The notes under the pieces: generated by a model
Told to the model about the DNA's origin: nothing
Database searches by the model: none
What the model saw: only the letters and a program-made list of their open reading frames with translations
Part shown: piece after piece, positions 29,378-46,377 of the stretch
Position numbering within the stretch: the stretch's first letter is position 1
How the letters are laid out: each line of letters begins with the position of its first letter
Origin: Bacilli bacterium
GTDB lineage: Bacteria > Bacillota_I > Bacilli_A > RF39 > UBA660
Assembly (NCBI GenBank): GCA_017450205.1
Contig: JAFSVF010000009.1
Location: 107,491 to 171,490, forward strand
Direction of reading: 5' to 3'
DNA length: 64,000 nucleotides
Translations under genes and position numbers: made by a program

Positions 29378-30031
29378 ATGAAAAAGCAAACAGCAAAAAG
29401 CAAAAAGAAAAGTTTATTCAAAAGATTCAAAGGTTTTACATTAGTTGAATTACTTGCTGTAATTGTAATTTTAGCAATTATTATGATTATTGCTATTCCT
29501 GCTGTTCTTAATACTTTAGAAGCTTCAAGAAAAAAGACAATGGTTGAGTTTGCTCAAAAGGTATTTGTTACAGGCGAACGAAAGTATTTAGAAGATAAAT
29601 CTTTTAATGGAATGGTTAATATCTCTAGAGGAAATTATTATTATTCTATTAAAGATGATTTAGATATGTCTAATACTGGAGATTATGATGGTTATTATAT
29701 TCTTTGGGTTGATGGTGATATTTTAAATCATAATATTCTTTTATGGGATAAAAATTATGTTCTTGTTAAACTTTATGTTGAAGATCATGAGATAACTGAC
29801 CAAGATGTTTTAAGTATTGGAGAATATAAACAACAATTAGTTAGTATTGCTGGTGAAGCATTTGCAAACGAATTTGGAGATTTTAAAACTTTAAATAAAG
29901 AAAAATTAATGTATAGTTTATTTTTGATGGCAGACTTAGATTGTAATGATGAATATGATCAAAAAATCTATGTTGTTGATGCTAGTAAACCAACTGAATC
30001 ATTTAATTCTTGTGAGCGTTTTGGTAATTAG
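29378..30031 (+). CDS. Prepilin-type N-terminal cleavage/methylation domain protein
   Basis: Basic leader then KG|FTLVELLAVIVILAIIMIIAIP. Confidence 0.9.
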   Translation: MKKQTAKSKKKSLFKRFKGFTLVELLAVIVILAIIMIIAIPAVLNTLEASRKKTMVEFAQKVFVTGERKYLEDKSFNGMVNISRGNYYYSIKDDLDMSNTGDYDGYYILWVDGDILNHNILLWDKNYVLVKLYVEDHEITDQDVLSIGEYKQQLVSIAGEAFANEFGDFKTLNKEKLMYSLFLMADLDCNDEYDQKIYVVDASKPTESFNSCERFGN

Positions 30032-37820: not shown

Positions 37821-39707
37821 ATGAAAAAAATTAAGACGTTTTTTAAAAAAATAAAAGATAAGATTAAAGGTTTTACTTTAGTTGAGTTATTAGCTGTAAT
37901 TGTAATCCTAGCAATTATTATGCTTATAGCTATTCCAGCTGTATTAAATACACTTCAATCTGCAAGAAAAAAAGCTTTTGTAGAATATACAGATAAAATA
38001 GTTGGTCTTTCAGAACAAAAATACTTAGAAGGTGTTATGACAGGTGAAGCAAGTTATACTTGTTATATATATAATATAAAAACCGATTTAGGACTTAGTA
38101 ATACAGGTGAATATAATGGATATGTTTTAGTTGCACCTACTGAAGATGATAATTATCAATATTGGGTTTTATTATATGATGATAATTACTTTTTAGATGT
38201 AATTGAATATAAAGAATTTCAAACTGATACTGTAGCTAAATTAGTCAATGCACCATCTCAAACGAGTAAATTTGATATGAATTATTTTGCTAAAACTTTA
38301 AAAGAAAAAGGTGTTAATTGTAGTTCTTTTGAATATAATGGTGGTTCAATTGAACCTTCTGATAATATAGATGGTGACAATGAAGGAACAGATTGTGCAG
38401 GACAAACAGTTCATAATTCAGTACCAAAGAGTGCAACTGGTTTATATAAACTAATTGCAGAACAAGCATATATGGATAATGTTAAATCTGAACATGTGGC
38501 ATTCTGTGATGGTATTAAAATAACTGAAGGAAGTGAGGGTTATTTTAAAAACGAAGAAACTAATTCATGGGAATATTTAGAAAATGGTATTGGTGTTTAT
38601 GAGGTTGCTAGTACTAAAGATAACAAGTATCCAATATATTATTTTAGAGGTGATGACATAGATAATAATTATGTTACTTTTGCTAACAAGTGTTGGAGAA
38701 TTGTTAAGACAACTTCAACTGGTGGTATAAAGATTGTTTATAATGGTAATACATGTGACGCTACTGGTAAAAACCTTGGAATTGGGTATCAAGGTTATGA
38801 TACTGGTTATATGAATATTCCAAGTAATTTATATATGCATGGTCCAGTTACTCCTAGAAATAGTTTGAAAACAGCAAATGGAACTGAATATTTATATGGT
38901 CGTGATTTTACATATAGTAATGGTGAATATACTTTAGTTGATACTATATCTTTACCTTATAAAGAAGATATTAGATCAGAGCTTTCAACTCATCATTATA
39001 CTTGTTTAAATACAACAGGAAAGTGTACAACAATTAATTGGGTATACAATATCTATGGTCAAGGATTAGAGTATTATATGATGACTGACGGAAAATCATT
39101 TGATGATGCGTTAAACGAAATGGTATATAGTAATTCTGTTTCTTCTTTAGCAAAACAAACAATTGATAAATGGTATGAAGATAATTTAATAAGTTATGCT
39201 TCTTATATTGAAGATACTCCTTATTGTGAATTTAAAAAATTACAATCATTTGATGCAAAGACAGCGGATATTTCTAGCTATGGAAAGTTCAAGTTATATT
39301 ATGAGTCATATGGTTCTACTGGTAGAAGTTTTAATAATGGTGTTTGTGAGAAACAATATGCTTATACTGTTTCTTCAAGCATTGGTAATGGTGCTTTAAA
39401 ATATCCAATTGCGATATTAAATTCAGATGATCTATTTTATACTGGTGAAGAAGATGGATATTCATTCTTAGATGCTCCTGCTTCATGGGTAATGAATCCA
39501 AAGTTCTTTACGCTTATTTCTACTGACGATGGTGGAAGAGGTGCATTTATGGAAAGTACTAATTACTGGGATGGCGGAGGATTTGAATATTGTGGTGGTG
39601 ATGAAGCCGGCTGCGATAATAATATAAGACCTGCTATTTCCTTAAAACCTGGTACTGATGTTTCTGGTGGAGATGGAACAAAGTCAAATCCTTATGTAAT
39701 AAGATAG
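37821..39707 (+). CDS. Prepilin-type protein with a large C-terminal adhesin-like domain
   Basis: KG|FTLVELLAVIVILAIIMLIAIP; YYFRG...NNYV.FA..CWRIV; IRPAISL...GDGT.SNPY. Confidence 0.85.
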   Translation: MKKIKTFFKKIKDKIKGFTLVELLAVIVILAIIMLIAIPAVLNTLQSARKKAFVEYTDKIVGLSEQKYLEGVMTGEASYTCYIYNIKTDLGLSNTGEYNGYVLVAPTEDDNYQYWVLLYDDNYFLDVIEYKEFQTDTVAKLVNAPSQTSKFDMNYFAKTLKEKGVNCSSFEYNGGSIEPSDNIDGDNEGTDCAGQTVHNSVPKSATGLYKLIAEQAYMDNVKSEHVAFCDGIKITEGSEGYFKNEETNSWEYLENGIGVYEVASTKDNKYPIYYFRGDDIDNNYVTFANKCWRIVKTTSTGGIKIVYNGNTCDATGKNLGIGYQGYDTGYMNIPSNLYMHGPVTPRNSLKTANGTEYLYGRDFTYSNGEYTLVDTISLPYKEDIRSELSTHHYTCLNTTGKCTTINWVYNIYGQGLEYYMMTDGKSFDDALNEMVYSNSVSSLAKQTIDKWYEDNLISYASYIEDTPYCEFKKLQSFDAKTADISSYGKFKLYYESYGSTGRSFNNGVCEKQYAYTVSSSIGNGALKYPIAILNSDDLFYTGEEDGYSFLDAPASWVMNPKFFTLISTDDGGRGAFMESTNYWDGGGFEYCGGDEAGCDNNIRPAISLKPGTDVSGGDGTKSNPYVIR

Positions 39708-39725: not shown

Positions 39726-39794
39726 GTATATATGAATTATCTGTTTTTAAATAAATATGAGTTATAATTATTTAGTAAGGAGAATGTTTAGTAT

Positions 39795-40696
39795 ATGAAT
39801 AAAGTATTGAGTATTATTAAAGACTTAAATCCTTTTAGTAATAAAAGAATAGATAATAAAATAATTTATACGTTAAAAATATTATTGTCTGCATTTGTGG
39901 TGTATTTTGCTAGTTTAATTATTGCAGAAGGGATTATTATAGGCGGTTCATATTTATTTGGATACAATGCTACTGACAAACAAATGCCTTATGATATTAT
40001 GCTATTATGTACATTTTATGGTTATTTAATTACTATATTATTATTTATATTATTTGCTAAAAAAATAAATAAAATTGAATTAAATAAAATTGGATTAGAT
40101 AAAAATTTTAAAACTTTTTTAAAGGAATATTAATTGGAATGGTATCATTATCATTAATAATAATTTCATTATTAATGATTGGTGCAATTAGATTTAATGG
40201 AATAAACAATAATATTGATTGGTTGTTTTTGGTATTATATTTATTTGGATATTTAATTCAAAGTTTTATGGAAGAGTTAATATGTAGAGGATATTTATTA
40301 CATAGATTAAAAGAAAGAATACCTCTTGTATTAGCTATTATTATAAGTATATTATTCTTTTCAATAGGACATTTTAATAAGATGTTTGTTGATGGTACAT
40401 TGATAGGCGTTATAGGAATAATAAATCTATTATTAATTAGTTTAATATTTGTTGTCATTACATTAAAAAACAAAAATATTTATGGGGCAATAGGTTTTCA
40501 TTTTATATGGAATTTTGCATTATTTAGTATTATAGGTTTAAATCTAAGCGGACTTGAAATTACCAATCCTATTTTTCAAATAGAAGTGGCTAATAAATTC
40601 TTAACTGGATATAGTTATGGAATTGAGTCAAGTTTTATAACAACTATTATACTTATAATTATATTATTATTAACAAAGATAAATGTAAGAATATAA
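39795..40696 (+). pseudogene. CPBP (CAAX/Abi) intramembrane metalloprotease split by a 1-nt frameshift near 40120
   Basis: ORFs 39795-40133 and 40139-40696 join as KTFLKGILIGMV if one A is added; EELICRGY, FSIGH and HFIWN motifs. Confidence 0.8.
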
Positions 40697-40754
40697 TGAT
40701 CGGAAGATTAAGATATTATGATTAGCTATATAGCAAGGGGACTTTAATTAATAT

Positions 40755-40909
40755 TTGATACCGATTTATAGTAACTATAAAAATGATTTAATATTAGAAG
40801 GGATTATAATTAATTTCGTCTTTTTTATGCTATAATTGAATAGAAATTGAGTAATTTCTATGAATAATAAAACTAATATCAATTGGTTGATAACAATTTA
40901 GTCAAGACT
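40755..40909 (+). repeat. Copy 1 of a ~155 bp unit: arm, terminator remnant, promoter, rbgA-like 5' end, arm
   Basis: Shares AATTTCGTCTTTTTTATGCTATAATTGAATAGAAAT and ATG-N8 codons ending TGGTTGAT with 43154-43308; encodes MNNKTNINW. Confidence 0.85.
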
Positions 40910-40929
40910 AATAAGAATTAGGTGATAAA

Positions 40930-41445
40930 ATGAGTAATTTATCTAAAGTAATTTTAGGAACTGGTAATTATTATGATGTAAAAAGTGGTAATACTGTATC
41001 TGTTACAGGTGATGGTGGTAATGCATGGGGATATTTTGGACCAGCATATAAAAGACTAGCCCCTAAACTAGTTACTTATACACCTTATGCTGAAAAATTA
41101 GAAGTATTAGAAGAATTAAAAAAAGATGTCTCTAAATTAAAAGAATATATAGAATTTAGAAAAGAAATAGAAGATGAATATATAAAAAGTTATTATGACA
41201 TAAGACTAAAAGATTTAGATGTTAAAGAGTTACTTTATATATTAAATGAGAAATTTGGTGATTGTATAATATTTTTATGCCATGAACCAATTGATGAATT
41301 TTGCCACAGAAGATTAATTGCAGATTATATAGAACTTGAAACAGGAATATATATTCCAAAAGTAAGTGTAGATGAACAAGGTAATGTTAAAAAACTTGTT
41401 CCAATAAGATATAAAAATAGATTAAAAGAAGTAATGAATAAGTAG
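40930..41445 (+). CDS. DUF488-like protein
   Basis: LAP...; IIFLCHE...FCHRRLIADYIE motif. Confidence 0.65.
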   Translation: MSNLSKVILGTGNYYDVKSGNTVSVTGDGGNAWGYFGPAYKRLAPKLVTYTPYAEKLEVLEELKKDVSKLKEYIEFRKEIEDEYIKSYYDIRLKDLDVKELLYILNEKFGDCIIFLCHEPIDEFCHRRLIADYIELETGIYIPKVSVDEQGNVKKLVPIRYKNRLKEVMNK

Positions 41446-41510
41446 ATGATTTACATTAATAACGAAAATAAAACAAATATAAATTTGTTGATAACAATTT
41501 AATCAAGACT
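41446..41510 (+). repeat. att-like junction: degenerate rbgA-like N-terminus followed by an arm
   Basis: Reads MIYINNENKTNINL then TTGATAACAATTTAATCAAGACT (22/23 identical to 40887-40909). Confidence 0.8.
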
Positions 41511-41532
41511 GATGCAAAAAGAGGTGATAAAA

Positions 41533-42198
41533 ATGACTTTGGAGGATTTAAAAATAGAATATGATAAACTTCAGTTAAAGTATGGAGCTAAAGAATTAGA
41601 TTCTATTTATAATGGTGGATGTATTGATAATCCAGATATATGTTTTGTATTTATGAATCCAACTGGCAAGAATATTGCTTCATCTAAATCATGGAAAGGT
41701 TTAAAATCACCTTGGATAGGTACTAAAAATATTTGGGATTTATTCTATGAATTAAAATTATTAGATAAAGATATATATGATAAAATAAAAACTATTAAAG
41801 GACTTGATTGGACGGAAGAATTTGCAAATGAAGTTTATAATAATGTAAAAAAACATAAATACTTTATAACTAATTTAGGGAAATGCACTCAAATTGATGC
41901 AAGACCTCTTCCTGATAGTGTATATAAAGAATATCTACATCTACTAGAAAAAGAAATAGAAATAATAAATCCTAAAGTAATTGTATTATTTGGTAATCAA
42001 GTTTCTTCTATTGTATTAAATCAAAAAGTGTCTGTTTCACAATGTAGAAAACAAAAATTTGAAAAAAATATTAATGGTAAAAAATATAAGTTTTATTCAG
42101 TTTTTTATCCAGTAGGTAATGGTAGATTTAATATAGGAAAATCTATTGAAGATATTAATTATATTATTGATAATATTAATGATAAAATTGTAGTATAA
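41533..42198 (+). CDS. Uracil-DNA glycosylase superfamily protein
   Basis: FVFMNPT, FITNLGKC, EIEIINPKVIVLFG, FYP; start MTLED after RBS GAGGTG. Confidence 0.75.
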   Translation: MTLEDLKIEYDKLQLKYGAKELDSIYNGGCIDNPDICFVFMNPTGKNIASSKSWKGLKSPWIGTKNIWDLFYELKLLDKDIYDKIKTIKGLDWTEEFANEVYNNVKKHKYFITNLGKCTQIDARPLPDSVYKEYLHLLEKEIEIINPKVIVLFGNQVSSIVLNQKVSVSQCRKQKFEKNINGKKYKFYSVFYPVGNGRFNIGKSIEDINYIIDNINDKIVV

Positions 42199-42383
42199 AA
42201 AAGAAGATGACTCATTATTCAAGAATAAAAGAAAAACTAGGTATAATAAGGGATTGAGAAATTTAATAACTTGTATGTTTAATACAAAATATGAGTAGAA
42301 GTTTAAAGGTGATTACTTCACATAATAATAAGAAATTTAAAGTATAATTAAAGTAAAATATCTCATAGTAATGGAGGTGTAAA

Positions 42384-42833
42384 ATGAGTATAATTTCATC
42401 AGCTAGTTCATCTTCTTCTTGGAGAGGATTAGATTATTATAAGAAAAATAAAATTAAAAATCTTAAGAAGCTAAATGATTTTGAATATACTAGTGAAGTT
42501 ATTGGTAGTGAAACTTATAGTGTTTATTTAGATGTATCTCATCCTAGAAGGTCTACTTGTAATTGTCCTCATGCTAATGGAAAAAGAATAATTTGCAAGC
42601 ATATTGTTGCAACATTCTTTGAAGTGTTTCCTCAAGAAGCAATAAACTTTGAAAAGGAACAAGAAAGATTACAAGAAGAATATGAAGATTATCAAGCAAA
42701 ATTATACAATAAAACACAAAGTTATATTAAATCATTGACTAAAAAAGAATTAATTGATGAATTATCATACATTTTAGATTATGCGCCAGATTGGGTGTAC
42801 AATGATTTTGTAAGAAGAAATGATATTGAATAA
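42384..42833 (+). CDS. SWIM zinc-finger protein
   Basis: RGLDYY, V.GSETY.V, CNCPH......CKHIVA. Confidence 0.85.
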   Translation: MSIISSASSSSSWRGLDYYKKNKIKNLKKLNDFEYTSEVIGSETYSVYLDVSHPRRSTCNCPHANGKRIICKHIVATFFEVFPQEAINFEKEQERLQEEYEDYQAKLYNKTQSYIKSLTKKELIDELSYILDYAPDWVYNDFVRRNDIE

Positions 42834-42850
42834 TAAAAATGGAGGCAATT

Positions 42851-43131
42851 ATGAATAATAAAACGAGGTATTAATATATGAAGATAATGATGGTTTAATA
42901 AGAGTTGATGTAAAGTTTATTGATGAAGATGTTTGGTTAAATCAAAGTCAGTTAGCTGAAATATACAAGACATCTCATGAAAATATTACTATGCATATTT
43001 CAAATATATACAAAGATAAAGAATTACCAGATTCAACTTGTAAGAAATTCTTACAAGGTCAAAAAGAAGGTAATAGGGAAGTTAAAAGAAATATTGATCA
43101 TTATAATTTAGATATGATAATTGCCATATGA
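42851..43131 (+). pseudogene. Truncated, frameshifted RhuM-family DNA-binding protein
   Basis: RBS GGAGG; reads LIYEDNDG..RVDV.F.DEDVWLNQSQLAE...HISNIY...EGNREV.R....YNLDMIIAI. Confidence 0.8.
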
Positions 43132-43153
43132 CCAAGTAAAAAATTATATTTTT

Positions 43154-43308
43154 TTGATTACACCATATTCAAGAACATAAAAATGACTTAAAAATGGACG
43201 AAACTATACTAAATTTCGTCTTTTTTATGCTATAATTGAATAGAAATGGAGTGAATCCTATGGATAATAAAACTAATGTAAACTGGTTGATTACAGTTTA
43301 TAGTAACT
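43154..43308 (+). repeat. Copy 2 of the ~155 bp unit; putative attL containing a displaced rbgA promoter, RBS and first nine codons
   Basis: Terminator GACGAAA..TTTCGTC-T6, TGCTATAAT, GGAG, ATG at 43260 MDNKTNVNW, then arm TTGATTACAGTTTATAGTAACT. Confidence 0.85.
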
Positions 43309-43517
43309 TTTGGAGAAACCCTTTATTTATAAGACATTGCGAGGATTTAAACCTTGCATGTTTATAGTAAAAAATATAAAAAATGATAAATAATAGTCAA
43401 AAATGCCTAAAATATATTAAAAATGGTATAAGAATTAAGGTATTGATTACTGGACAGTAACTACCTTAATTTGACACATCTTATAATGTGTTTTTTTATG
43501 TTCAAATGGAGGTATTT

Positions 43518-43647
43518 ATGAAAGAAGAAATAATTAAAATTAATGTATCTGAAATAGCAGATTTTTCAAAATACCCATTTAAAATTAATAATGATTTAAA
43601 CTAAGAAGAATTAAAAGAGAGTATTAAAGAAAATGGTGTTTTAGTAA
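43518..43647 (+). pseudogene. ParB/RepB/Spo0J N-terminal remnant
   Basis: RBS GGAGG; MKEEIIKINVSEIADFSKYPFKINNDLN*EELKESIKENGVLV. Confidence 0.75.
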
Positions 43648-43870
43648 CTAGCTCTTTTTTTCTTCAATTTCTTTTCCATAGAAAAGCATGATGTAATTAT
43701 AGAAATCTATAATTGCATCACTGTTAATTAAATCATTATATAGATTTTTGTTGTAATCAAAATGTTCTTTTAATATACTGAATAGTTTTCCATTTTCTTC
43801 AAAAATTTTGGAAAAAAGTTTTCTACATAGGTGAACCATATTTTTTGATATAATACAAATCATCTTTCAT
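43648..43870 (-). pseudogene. Frameshifted, truncated hypothetical gene
   Basis: RBS AGAGGGG and ATG at 43870 (MKDDLYYIKK) shift into the 71 aa ORF HLCRKLF...; abuts the ParB remnant. Confidence 0.45.
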
Positions 43871-44020
43871 GGTAACCCCTCTTTTATGTCGTTATTGTTA
43901 TACCATTTTATAAGAAATGCAATTGATTGAATAATACTTTTTATGATACGTAAATACCGGTAATTATGATTGTATCATTTAAGATTGTGTGATATTATCT
44001 ATATGGTAGGAGTGATTTAA

Positions 44021-45013
44021 ATGATATGCAAAAAGTGTGGTACAGCTAATAGTGAAAATGCAGAATTTTGTATTACTTGTGGAAGTAATTTAAAAGAAGA
44101 GATAACTACCATTTTTAATAATAATCAAAATAATCAAGTACCTAATAATGGTACCTCAGCTAACTTATATGACCAAAGTGTAATAGAACCTCAACCAACT
44201 GTTGTTTCTTCGCAATCGGTAGTTAGTAGCCAACATATGGGAAATATGGTAAATACTCAATCTCAACCAAGAAAAAAAAGAAATAGTTTAAATATTATAA
44301 TAATTTTATTAATTATGTTTATCATAGTTATTGCTGGTGGAGCATATTATCTTTTAAATAATAAAGGAAGTATTCCATCTATCAATAAAAGTGATTTAAA
44401 TACTGATGGTGATGTTAAAGAAAATAATAATAATAATGATGATAATTATTATTATTTAATTTTCTCTGACTATAAATTTAGATTTCCGGTTTCATGGTTT
44501 GATAAAAATAAATTATATGGAATAAGTAGTGAACCTGGTTCTATTAGTAATAGGTCAATTATAGGTGTTGCTGATAATGGCAATGAATCATTTTCATTTG
44601 ATTATTACTCTGAGTCTAATTCAACTGGTAAGTATGGACCAGAGTATCAAATTCATAAGTTATGGTCTGCTGGATTATCTAGTAGTTTTTATCCGGCTGA
44701 AGCTCCAGCAAATGATGATCAAATACGTGAAAAAGGTCCATACGTACAGCAAGGAGATACTTATGTAAGAAAAAGTGGTTGTGAGCAATTAAATGGTTAT
44801 AGATTGTTTTGGTATTTAGTTGCTAGTTATGATCAAAATGCAGATGGCACTTATACGACGTCTAATTATTTAACTGCATTTGTTCAAAAAGATGGCGTTA
44901 ATTCTTATTTATGTGCTAGTATAAATAAATTTGTTAAAAAGACTAGTAGTAATGACTCATATGCTTTTACAATGGATGATATATATAAATATTCTGGTGA
45001 AATGGTTGAATAA
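44021..45013 (+). CDS. Zinc-ribbon, single-TM membrane protein
   Basis: CKKCG......FCITCG, N/Q-rich linker, TM, extracellular domain; own promoter and terminator. Confidence 0.8.
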   Translation: MICKKCGTANSENAEFCITCGSNLKEEITTIFNNNQNNQVPNNGTSANLYDQSVIEPQPTVVSSQSVVSSQHMGNMVNTQSQPRKKRNSLNIIIILLIMFIIVIAGGAYYLLNNKGSIPSINKSDLNTDGDVKENNNNNDDNYYYLIFSDYKFRFPVSWFDKNKLYGISSEPGSISNRSIIGVADNGNESFSFDYYSESNSTGKYGPEYQIHKLWSAGLSSSFYPAEAPANDDQIREKGPYVQQGDTYVRKSGCEQLNGYRLFWYLVASYDQNADGTYTTSNYLTAFVQKDGVNSYLCASINKFVKKTSSNDSYAFTMDDIYKYSGEMVE

Positions 45014-45015
45014 TG

Positions 45016-45045
45016 AAAAGTATTGTTACAATACTTTTCTTTTTT
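45016..45045 (+). terminator. Intrinsic terminator
   Basis: GAAAAGTATTG / CAATACTTTTC hairpin plus T tract. Confidence 0.75.
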
Positions 45046-45104
45046 ATATGTAAGGAAGAGTGTTAAAATATTTATAAATTAACTAAAGGTTATGTGTTTA
45101 GACT

Positions 45105-45458
45105 ATATCTTAATGAAAAACAAAAAAACTAATTGAAGAATTAAAAAATTATTATAAAAAATGATTTATTATCAAAAGCAGATTTTGAAGATTTTCATAA
45201 ACAATATATGTATGAATTAAACTCTTTGAGATTATCAAAAAGAAGAATTATAAAACGAAAAAGATAATAAATTTATTTGGATTGGCTTAAAGAAATTAAA
45301 AAAATAAATAAGATTAATACTATAACTAGAAATGTTGTAGATGAGTTTATTTAAAATATATATGTATGTGAAGATAAAAAATAAAAATAGAATTTAAATA
45401 TAAAGATCAATATGAAGAAGCTATTAGGTATCTAAAATCTCAGAAAAGTATGATATAA
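45105..45458 (+). pseudogene. C-terminal remnant of a large serine recombinase with several frameshifts and stops
   Basis: Pieces read LLSKADFEDFHKQY..ELNSL, WLKEIKKINKINTITRNVVDEFI*NIYVCEDK and IEFKYKDQYEEAIRYL, matching the typical recombinase tail. Confidence 0.65.
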
Positions 45459-45459
45459 T
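45451..45459 (+). promoter_or_regulatory. Extended -10 promoter for rbgA, inside the last codons of the recombinase remnant
   Basis: TGATATAAT, 36 bp upstream of the rbgA ATG. Confidence 0.6.
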
Positions 45460-45495
45460 GTAATAGTGAGTTGTCATTAAAAAGGAAGTGATCTT

Positions 45496-46377
45496 ATGAC
45501 AAATAATAATGAAAATAACGAGTTACGAAAAAACGTAATCAATTGGTATCCTGGTCATATGGCTAAAACTAAAAGAGAAATAAATGATTTATTACCATTA
45601 ATTGATGTAGTGTATGAAATAGTTGACGCTAGAATACCACAATCTTCTAGAATTGAAGATATAGATAATATTGTTAAGAATAAACCTAGAATTATTATTA
45701 TGACTAAAAAAGACTTATGTGATTTAGAAGAAACTAATAAATGGATTAATAAATATAGAAATGAAGGTCATACTGTAGTTTTAGTTAATTTAAATAATAA
45801 TGATGATTTGAAATATGTTTTAAATGAAACTAAAAAAATTGGTGATGAAATTAATAAGAAACGTCTTGATAAAGGCTTAAAAGAAAAAGAATTAAAAGCT
45901 TTAGTAGTAGGAATACCTAATGTAGGTAAATCCACTTTTATAAATAGAATGGCTGGTAAAAAAGTTGCGGGTGTAGGTAATATGCCAGGTGTAACTAAAA
46001 ATCTAGTTTGGCTTAAAACAAAATCTAATATCCTTTTACTTGATACTCCTGGTATTTTATGGCCTAAATTTGATTCACAAGAAATCGCTAGAAATTTAGC
46101 TGCTATGAGTGCAATAAAGATGGAAGTATATGATAATGATGAAGTTGCTATTCATGTTCTTAATAAATTAAGTAAATATTATCCTAATTATTTAGAAGCT
46201 AGATATGGATTAACTGAATTTGATAATGATGATATTGGTGAAATGTATGATAGAATTGGTAAAAAGTTAGGATATATCATTAGAGGTGGAGAAATAGATT
46301 ACGCTCGTGTTTCTACATCAGTTATTAATGATATTAGAAATGAAAATATAAAAGGAATTACATTCGATAGAATTTAA
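45496..46377 (+). CDS. rbgA: Ribosome biogenesis GTPase RbgA (YlqF)
   Basis: INWYPGHMAK, DARIP, GIPNVGKST, DTPGILWPK. Confidence 0.97.
   Translation: MTNNNENNELRKNVINWYPGHMAKTKREINDLLPLIDVVYEIVDARIPQSSRIEDIDNIVKNKPRIIIMTKKDLCDLEETNKWINKYRNEGHTVVLVNLNNNDDLKYVLNETKKIGDEINKKRLDKGLKEKELKALVVGIPNVGKSTFINRMAGKKVAGVGNMPGVTKNLVWLKTKSNILLLDTPGILWPKFDSQEIARNLAAMSAIKMEVYDNDEVAIHVLNKLSKYYPNYLEARYGLTEFDNDDIGEMYDRIGKKLGYIIRGGEIDYARVSTSVINDIRNENIKGITFDRI

Follow-up and report, generated by a model that had tools for sequence, protein, structure and literature searches.

Probable accretion of small gene cassettes at the 5′ end of rbgA in a Bacilli genome, and a likely role for paired large serine recombinases

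The integron is the textbook example of how single genes are stockpiled and shuffled, and we know of no equivalent that has been established in Firmicutes. Non-autonomous elements flanked by attachment (att) sites can also lie in tandem and be mobilised by the recombinase of an autonomous partner, as in the accretion of streptococcal integrative and conjugative elements (ICEs) with cis-mobilizable elements (CIMEs) and in tycheposon arrays. These systems use tyrosine recombinases, occupy the 3′ ends of genes or tRNAs and comprise few, kb-scale units, which to our knowledge have no ribosome-binding site (RBS) leader in common. The staphylococcal cassette chromosome (SCC, SCCmec) is described, in the part of the source cited here, as integrating in the end of a housekeeping gene by means of a two-gene operon of large serine recombinases (LSRs) and as carrying a copy of that gene end, with direct repeats at every boundary and tandem composite islands that include units without a recombinase (PMC12648241). 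In streptococci, ICEs such as Tn5253 occupy the 5′ end of rbgA; according to the passages cited, the element preserves the RbgA N-terminus and in some cases replaces the upstream promoter (PMC4701971, PMC6079316). Here we analysed a 64,000-nt stretch from the genome of a Bacilli bacterium (assembly GCA_017450205.1, contig JAFSVF010000009.1, positions 107,491 to 171,490), referred to below as the window, in which rbgA is preceded by a series of small gene-bearing units. We read the interval at ~39.8-45.5 kb of the window as an accretion array of mobile units at the rbgA 5′ end, most likely moved by an LSR pair and read as an operon, and assign this reading a probability of roughly 0.6. The closest known system is that of SCC composite islands with ccr-less psiSCC units, which likewise combine an LSR pair, a target at a gene end, direct repeats and units without a recombinase. 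The streptococcal ICEs sit, like the array, at the 5′ end of rbgA but use tyrosine integrases, and are described in the text available from that source as single large elements, with no mention there of miniature cassette arrays (PMC4701971). We place the finding as a variant of LSR-driven, SCC-like accretion with an integron-like layout and expression logic.

Window features given below with two dots between their coordinates are on the + strand, loci cited by L numbers come from other genomes or metagenomes, and the functional labels of cargo genes derive from Pfam and Atlas alone. The rbgA gene itself (45496..46377) encodes a ribosome-biogenesis GTPase (Pfam MMR_HSR1 and related families) and is followed by RNase HII. 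Its codons 16-17, AAT TGG (45541-45546), are followed by TAT CCT GGT CAT ATG, giving the conserved WYPGHM motif, so that the genuine gene reads ..GTA ATC AAT TGG | TAT CCT GGT CAT ATG with the TGG at 45544-45546. Three further copies of the ending AAA ACN AAY ATH AAY TGG, which we call the tail, were identified upstream of rbgA, each continuing not into TAYCC but into a sequence that starts with TTG, the arm. The resulting tail|arm junctions lie at 40886|40887, 41487|41488 and 43286|43287, besides the real rbgA junction. An nhmmer profile built from 212 distinct junctions had exactly three matches in the window (E 4e-11, 8e-8 and 3e-9, respectively) and detected no degenerate junctions left of 40860; a whole-genome pattern search found no further junctions elsewhere in the genome. 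The arm TTGATAACAATTTA[G/A]TCAAGACT is present at 40887-40909 and 41488-41510, the sole two copies in the window (2 vs. 0 expected from 100 shuffles), and no other copy with ≤2 mismatches occurs in the 1.41-Mb genome. The tail before the first arm reads ATG AAT AAT AAA ACT AAT ATC AAT TGG (40860-40886), and that before the second arm is a degenerate ATT..TTG copy (41455-41487). A 6-bp inverted repeat, TATCAA-TTGG-TTGATA, forms a dyad centred on the junction. The leaders contain no known RNA family in an Rfam search of 40600-45700 at E ≤ 1, in which the lone match (CRISPR-DR6, E 0.73) is due to chance.

The unit between the first two junctions, cassette 1 (40887-41487), comprises a 23-nt arm, a 20-nt spacer with an RBS, one gene of 171 codons and a tail, without recombination or transfer genes, and with both of its ends att-derived it has the make-up of a cis-mobilizable element; its length of 601 bp agrees with the initial annotation, which had described a unit of about 600 bp made of an arm, an RBS, one gene and an rbgA-like tail. 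Its short leader (40887..40929) runs from the arm (40887-40909) through AATAAGAATT and AGGTGATAAA to the ATG at 40930, with the RBS AGGTGA at 40920-40925. The cargo gene (40930..41445) encodes a 171-aa DUF488-family protein: its own Pfam match to DUF488 is below the cut-off (E 0.0055), its homologues match DUF488 and DUF488-N3a at about 2e-4, and its Atlas feature score to DUF488 clusters is 0.96. In the tail of this cassette (41446..41487) the RBS overlaps the cargo stop codon, ATG has changed to ATT (41455-41457) and TGG to TTG (41485-41487), as is seen against L094 and L073, where the aligned copies of the cassette have intact tails. Where cassette 1 adjoins rbgA its tail is intact; the tail in the window, which has ceased to serve rbgA, is degenerate. 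The short leader of cassette 2 (41488..41532) has the same order, with the arm (41488-41510), GATGCAAAAA and GAGGTGATAAAA preceding the ATG at 41533 and the RBS GAGGTGA at 41521-41527; the two start codons are 43 and 45 nt from the first base of the arm, which bears out the claim that the two units begin with nearly identical leaders. The second cargo gene (41533..42198) encodes a 221-aa protein of the uracil-DNA-glycosylase (UDG) superfamily (PF03167, E 7.5e-9) and, as had also been stated, is unrelated to the first (BLASTP E 6.3; weak DUF488 vs. UDG superfamily).

It had further been proposed that many unrelated genes behind the same leader in metagenomes would point to a cassette pool, and that a leader found solely before these two genes would speak against one. 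An arm preceded by TGG was found in 105 metagenome stretches, which together with the genome loci yielded 117 distinct contexts, 83 of them scorable and 34 too short. Behind the arm, the scored contexts contain 49 protein families, which supports the pool; the restriction to two genes fails, because the arm family precedes 49 unrelated families. The leader is thus a common backbone before many unrelated genes, and it comes in two forms, a short one (39 contexts, 26 protein families) with the start codon at 42-48 and a long one (44 contexts, 32 families) with the start codon mostly at 199-206; nine families occur with both. The long leader (~200 nt) consists of a first arm (arm1), a conserved ~155-nt segment, a second arm in the same orientation (arm2), an A-rich spacer and an RBS, and the type of arm2 co-varies with the arm1 family. 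The ~155-nt segment holds a CTTGCATG motif that resembles a -35 box, and many cassettes have a long leader with a promoter-like TTGCAT motif. Comparison of units with the same cargo shows how the two forms are related. L309 has the same short leader and cargo as cassette 1, whereas L281 has the cargo and spacer of cassette 1 plus a ~155-nt insert and a second arm copy. Three cargo families occur with and without the insert, with identical spacer and open reading frame (ORF) (L281 vs. the window and L309; L007 vs. L258 and L296; L005 vs. L052 and L284), and in a second arm family the start codon of an 84-aa cargo is at 36 in a 306-bp unit and at 161 in a 431-bp unit. Because the same cargo is found with and without the insert, the window cassettes are promoterless versions of the long leader. 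The claim that the leaders lack a promoter is supported by the precise promoter-like insert of ~155 nt before the same cargo elsewhere and by a short leader that is too short for a promoter; the insert comparison appears to support it better than the missing consensus match does. Arm2-type arms are also seen at true junctions (L040, first unit of a 16-junction array), a small sample which suggests that the inner arm2 site can act as a junction as well.

Among 300 other sampled genomes of the family, 10 contain the arm (≤2 mismatches), compared to 1 match for a reversed control pattern; 10 of the 11 arm matches are preceded by an rbgA-like tail, and the exception (L006) is apparently a chance match. 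The strict junction motif was detected in 22 of the 301 sampled family genomes, from 20 of 214 genera (reversed control, 0), and a scan of species-representative genomes returned at least 198 stretches. Among the matches listed, most are gut or rumen metagenome-assembled genomes (MAGs) labelled Bacilli, Erysipelotrichaceae, Tenericutes or Acholeplasmatales; the minority of single matches in unrelated taxa were taken as chance. The array system is widespread in uncultured gut bacteria and apparently unpublished: the full-text literature searched, which leaves out most subscription journals, yielded no account of arrays of miniature cassettes at rbgA. In one MAG, a 13-kb stretch contains 16 strict junctions, with one + strand ORF per unit, and is followed by a ~40-kb ICE and then by rbgA, and two genomes of the same genus have different cassettes at the same site. 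The lengths of 68 distinct units range from 306 to 4917 bp (median 811 bp), and in 65 of them the longest ORF has the orientation of rbgA. Their cargo is diverse, with many GNAT acetyltransferases next to NADAR, ASCH, HD, NT5C, dUTPase_2, NUDIX and HAD proteins, methyltransferases, DUF3841, peptidases and a nicotinamide mononucleotide transporter; no family match was obtained for 21 of 61 scanned cargo proteins. When 99 distinct units were clustered, they formed 80 clusters, several of which recur with different neighbours. The cluster of cassette 1 has five contexts (the window, L309, L073, L031 and L094), adjoins rbgA in L031 and L094, and has a cargo identity of 92-94% across recurring copies (92-94% at the DNA level in L031, L073 and L094; 83% in L035). 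The UDG cargo is found behind leaders of other families in L091, L108 and L151; in L109, L197 and L274 its tail is intact.

The regularity of these units bears on whether they were ever mobile. Successive ICEs or integrative and mobilizable elements at rbgA, each reduced by internal deletion to its left end, one surviving gene and its right end, would leave a graveyard of units that never moved as such; this would account for the third unit of the window, which is exactly such a decayed ICE (below), for the long leader, which equals an ICE left end, for the eroded junctions and for the UDG cargo inside an ICE beside LSR genes in L091, but the geometry is too regular for it, with start codons at 42-48 or mostly 199-206 in 83 contexts and 49 families. 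The cargo ORFs are, moreover, intact, the same unit recurs in five contexts at 92-94% identity, and the cargo consists of GNATs, NADAR, ASCH, HD, NUDIX, dUTPase and similar genes rather than conjugation genes, so that we consider such an origin improbable.

The accretion reading finds its candidate enzyme at the ends of the ICEs. Overlapping LSR pairs are located directly upstream of rbgA in L243 (586 and 527 aa) and L245 (566 and 522 aa), each protein with Resolvase, Recombinase and Zn_ribbon_recom domains; L244 has an LSR pair with tail|arm and then the left end of another ICE behind it, an attP-like joint. In all three loci, the genes with these three domains stand at the element end, by the att site. 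The ICE left ends use the arms of the cassettes and the long leader, as in the L244 junction, where the same arm family and leader precede ParB. The genome that contains L244 (G162:C10) and L018 (G162:C3) apparently has two tandem ICEs at rbgA, both of which end in their own overlapping LSR pair, with a junction that reads LSR-tail|arm-ParB. In the window, the first 17 rbgA codons (through the TGG at 45544-45546) are ICE-supplied, and the RbgA N-terminus, MTNNNENNELRKNVINW, is that of the rbgA after the recombinase pair in L243, except for N13 vs. T13. The last unit of the array, unit 3 (43287-45546), begins with a decayed ICE left end (43287..43640), in which the arm TTGATTACAGTTTATAGTAAC (43287-43307) is followed by a long leader and a second arm copy (43443-43461), matched by the nhmmer profile of the long leader at 43287-43465 (E 1e-22). 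We read the broken start at 43519-43640 as ParB-like, solely because its DNA resembles the left end of the ICE in L244. At the other end of the unit, tblastn identified the C-terminus of the second LSR of the ICE (LSR2) as a pseudogene (45157..45455), which is 76% identical to the 527-aa recombinase of L243 over residues 428-527 and contains stop codons, and the DNA at 45111-45587, which covers the 3′ end of the LSR gene and the rbgA leader, is 88.5% identical to L243. To judge by these two ends, unit 3 is a decayed ICE. This C-terminal pseudogene is all that the window retains of an LSR, and no intact copy of the cognate recombinase was found in this genome. Its three LSRs (contigs C15, C1 and C11) were rejected as the cognate enzyme, as they do not match the remnant (E ≥ 0.37 in tblastn); apart from the remnant, the ICE LSR2 has at best a 28% identical match in the same genome. 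In L091, a UDG cargo gene 93% identical to that of the window was observed inside an ICE, on the minus strand at about 1770-2432; it stands directly upstream of a terminator and promoter and of the first LSR gene, and cargo genes thus pass between ICEs and cassettes.

Compared to SCC, the array shows the same kind of boundaries, direct repeats with the target-gene end and tandem units without a recombinase. The target, however, is the 5′ end of rbgA rather than the 3′ end of rlmH (orfX), and because the target is a 5′ end, each unit at rbgA must supply an RBS and a start codon and joins the transcription unit of the target. The units are 0.3-1.5 kb long with one gene, vs. 3-60 kb in SCC, with 16 or more in a row and a fixed leader geometry, and their autonomous partner is conjugative. 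Four LSR proteins from the ICEs scored 55.7-94.2 bits with the NCBIfam CcrB model (cut-off 900 bits), and three of the four scored 56-69 bits with CcrA (cut-off 700 bits), the fourth having no CcrA match at E ≤ 1e-5. With scores so far under both cut-offs, the LSRs of the rbgA ICEs are not Ccr proteins.

These data can be combined in the following mechanism, for which the anatomy, the recurrence, the changing neighbours and the adjacent recombinase genes are observed, and catalysis by the LSR pair, movement in trans and co-transcription are inferred. Units would be inserted at one point in rbgA, just past the codons ..Asn-Trp, each with an element-side half-site on its left (the arm) and, on its right, a replacement RBS, start codon and first ~10 rbgA codons (the tail). 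Since the tail mimics the left half of the target, each insertion would regenerate a target-like site beside rbgA, and the older junctions would be tail|arm, like an ICE-ICE or a circular junction. With the target-like site regenerated and the old junctions of this type, new units would stack at the rbgA side and units could be excised between junctions. The enzyme would most likely be the overlapping LSR pair at the rbgA-proximal end of the ~40-kb ICEs that target the same site, and the small cassettes without a recombinase would be moved in trans. Co-orientation, the lack of terminators and the overlap of the tail RBS with the cargo stop codon suggest that the array is read as one operon ending in rbgA, with cassettes 1 and 2 transcribed from the TGCTATAAT module at 40828. 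In the window the array is probably frozen and decaying, given that the cognate recombinase survives here solely as a pseudogene.

Several points weigh against this mechanism. No LSR2-like match at E ≤ 1e-20 was found in 10 of the 21 other array-bearing genomes, and full-length LSR2 matches at ≥50% identity were found in two array-bearing genomes only; with so many array genomes lacking such a match, the enzyme is linked to the cassettes by common ends, not by co-occurrence, and many arrays are orphans. Excision and circles are predicted from sequence, and the crossover is placed by symmetry alone. For canonical LSRs, recombination between attL and attR requires a directionality factor, whereas the likeness of the half-sites in the array would imply shuffling without one. 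A scan for promoter consensus sites in the AT-rich window performed at chance level (62 sites vs. 57 expected) and was likewise uninformative for L058 (97 vs. 110 expected). Finally, the same cargo ORF is found behind different arm and leader families, with homology from the RBS onwards, in one case as far as the stop codon. A crossover at tail|arm would leave each arm attached to its gene, so that a further kind of exchange must be at work, for instance a capture step or recombination, homologous or microhomology-based, within the conserved flanks.

This last observation is the main point in favour of a different view, in which the units are exchanged mainly by homologous recombination (e.g., after DNA uptake) between the ~45-nt tails and the ~25-45-nt arm/RBS leaders, and site-specific recombination brought in only the ICEs. 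Exchange of this kind would explain not only the same ORF with different leaders and tails and with homology from RBS to stop codon, but also the near-identical tails across cassettes, the many arrays without a cognate recombinase and the difference between long and short leaders, as a deletion between two direct arm copies; yet the conserved flanks are short for RecA-type exchange, and units begin and end precisely at the tail|arm junction. The ICE ends, which adjoin LSR genes, also have these arms, and the recurrent cassettes are rbgA-proximal, as fits insertion at a regenerated target. We therefore regard homologous recombination as an unlikely main route and favour accretion by the LSR pair.

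As to expression, the initial annotation regarded the sequence at 40828-40836 as the displaced promoter of rbgA, which might drive the cassettes as the Pc promoter of an integron does. This sequence, the extended -10 element TGCTATAAT, belongs to a module (40777..40886) that follows a frameshifted CAAX-protease gene and continues with an ATG at 40860 and nine codons to the TGG at 40884-40886; the mini-ORF from 40860 enters the arm and stops at the TAG at 40899-40901. A second promoter-bearing tail (43177..43286) consists of a hairpin (43197-43220) with a T-run, TGCTATAAT at 43228-43236, an ATG at 43260 and the TGG at 43284-43286; the segment 43177-43300 is an 84% identical copy of the first module and accounts for the junction-profile match at E 3e-9. 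Homologous ~110-nt modules of promoter, RBS and first codons were found at junctions in many other loci, and TGnTAWAAT occurs within 60 nt upstream in 20 of the 212 distinct junctions. Since the 40777 module thus recurs inside the arrays of other genomes, and again at 43177-43286, it is a mobile promoter-bearing tail and not demonstrably the native rbgA promoter, an identity that we rejected as unproven for 40777-40886. That the TGCTATAAT module at 40828 acts in a Pc-like manner remains, by analogy, a plausible guess; between 40836 and 42782 we found no terminator-like site on the + strand, which is compatible with Pc-like read-through. In a 12-kb stretch with 13 cassettes, the number of terminator-like sites was 2, vs. 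1.5 expected. Every one of the 212 distinct junctions encodes a mini-ORF with its own RBS, with 10 codons to the junction in 128 cases and a stop at the fifth arm codon in 98, and these mini-ORFs may couple translation along the array.

The layout resembles that of sedentary chromosomal integrons and of clusters of attC sites lacking integron integrases (CALINs) in its co-oriented, mostly promoterless single-ORF cassettes, in the existence of orphan arrays, in the predicted entry of new cassettes at the promoter- or target-proximal end, and in the many GNATs and small enzymes among the cargo. Differences are that there is no IntI and no attC hairpin, the site being a double-stranded tail|arm core, and that the array ends in an essential gene rather than starting at attI and Pc. 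We consider it highly improbable that the array is a true integron-type system, in which a tyrosine recombinase that has escaped recognition acts on sites folded as single strands. The co-oriented, mostly promoterless cassettes behind a promoter and the CALIN-like arrays that lack a recombinase would fit such a system, as would the tyrosine integrases described, in the cited part of the source, for the streptococcal ICEs at the rbgA 5′ end (PMC4701971); the enzymes at the element ends, however, are LSRs, and junction folding is not beyond chance. Six folds, from three junctions on both strands, gave free energies of -5.4 to -6.5 kcal/mol with no attC-like structure, and equal or better folding was seen in 11-28 of 200 shuffles (z -1.1 to -1.6). 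No tyrosine recombinase was found among the listed ORFs flanking the arrays examined, a search in which no IntI-specific model was used, and the three PF00589 (tyrosine recombinase) matches in the genome of the window are all on other contigs. Because there is no attC-like folding and the associated recombinases are of the serine and not of the tyrosine type, the analogy with integrons concerns the layout only.

A more far-reaching version of the accretion reading, which we put forward tentatively and hold to be possible rather than probable, is that the array is a serine-recombinase counterpart of the integron, with target-mimicking units, forced expression of the array and a detachable promoter module. 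The junctions would then serve as attP and the rbgA-proximal junction as attB, and the recombinase alone would insert, excise and reshuffle cassettes. Anchoring in the start of an essential gene would force read-through and hence expression of the whole array, the ~155-nt promoter module between two arm copies would toggle cassettes between self-driven and promoterless states, and a capture process would graft cargo ORFs so that their start codons fall at a set position.

The remainder of the interval is more eroded. As a correction to the initial annotation, the unit that opens with the second leader (41488-43286, 1799 bp) is not a single cassette but comprises at least two fused ones (UDG and SWIM) with eroded junctions; the third junction at 43286|43287 and the decayed ICE as the last unit are additions to that description. 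Elsewhere the UDG gene directly precedes a normal tail and arm, whereas in the window this junction is eroded and followed by a partial long leader (42199..42383). By comparison with L109, ~40 nt of tail and arm have been deleted, and the long-leader profile matches at 42215-42291 (E 0.012). The adjacent SWIM zinc-finger gene (42384-42833; PF04434) forms, with a truncated tail, the feature 42384..42864; the tail spans 42841-42864, with the RBS GGAGG at 42841-42845 and an ATG at 42851, and is broken after AAAAC. The block 42374-43131 is conserved in L026 and L300 at 82-83% identity. Inside the decayed ICE, we observed a gene for a 330-aa protein with an N-terminal zinc ribbon (44021-45013) and, after it, a hairpin and T-run terminator (45015-45039).

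On the left, the variable region extends to at least 39777. The frameshifted gene for a CAAX (Rce1-like) protease (39777..40696; PF02517, E 7e-18) is split into ORFs of 112 aa (39795-40133) and 185 aa (40139-40696). The segment 39777-40889 has a 91% identical counterpart within an arm-bounded unit of 2880 bp in the L056-L070 array; there the gene is intact, as an ORF of 300 aa, and follows what we read, from the N-termini, as ADP-ribosylglycohydrolase-like and XRE-type genes. The CAAX-protease region is, on this comparison, the remnant of an upstream multi-gene array unit, and the left side is not clean chromosome. A pilin-like gene (37821-39707) lies further left; a protein from the same genus matches its N-terminal ~110 aa alone, and because the homology is limited to this part, the left boundary cannot be fixed through this gene. 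A 166-nt direct repeat (74% identity) was observed at 29429-29594, inside the ORF 29378-30031, and at 37866-38031, in the 5′ part of the pilin-like (N-terminal-methylation) gene; the two genes may be paralogous and pseudopilin-like. In L226 (G257:C1, same genus), a UDG homologue (79% DNA identity; 607-1260) is located ~15 kb upstream of rbgA, beyond a pilin-like gene, and the genes between this homologue and rbgA include ones known elsewhere as cassette cargo, without strict junctions. The variable region may be far older and more extensive than the array that can still be recognised.

Annotation should not treat the mini-ORF MNENKTNINW.., which is repeated upstream of rbgA, or the orphan promoters there as gene fragments or duplications. 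If the accretion reading is correct, the system would provide natural combinations of att sites and LSR pairs in which the two sites have one half-site in common, which bears on directionality control in serine integrases and on their use in genome engineering. The fixed leader, with its set distance from arm to start codon, is a ready-made expression slot and makes the precise capture of ORFs a tractable question. For the organisms themselves, the accretion reading would mean that the logic of the integron evolved independently, on a different enzyme, in small-genome Bacilli of the gut and rumen, and it would explain part of the flux of accessory genes in these uncultured lineages.

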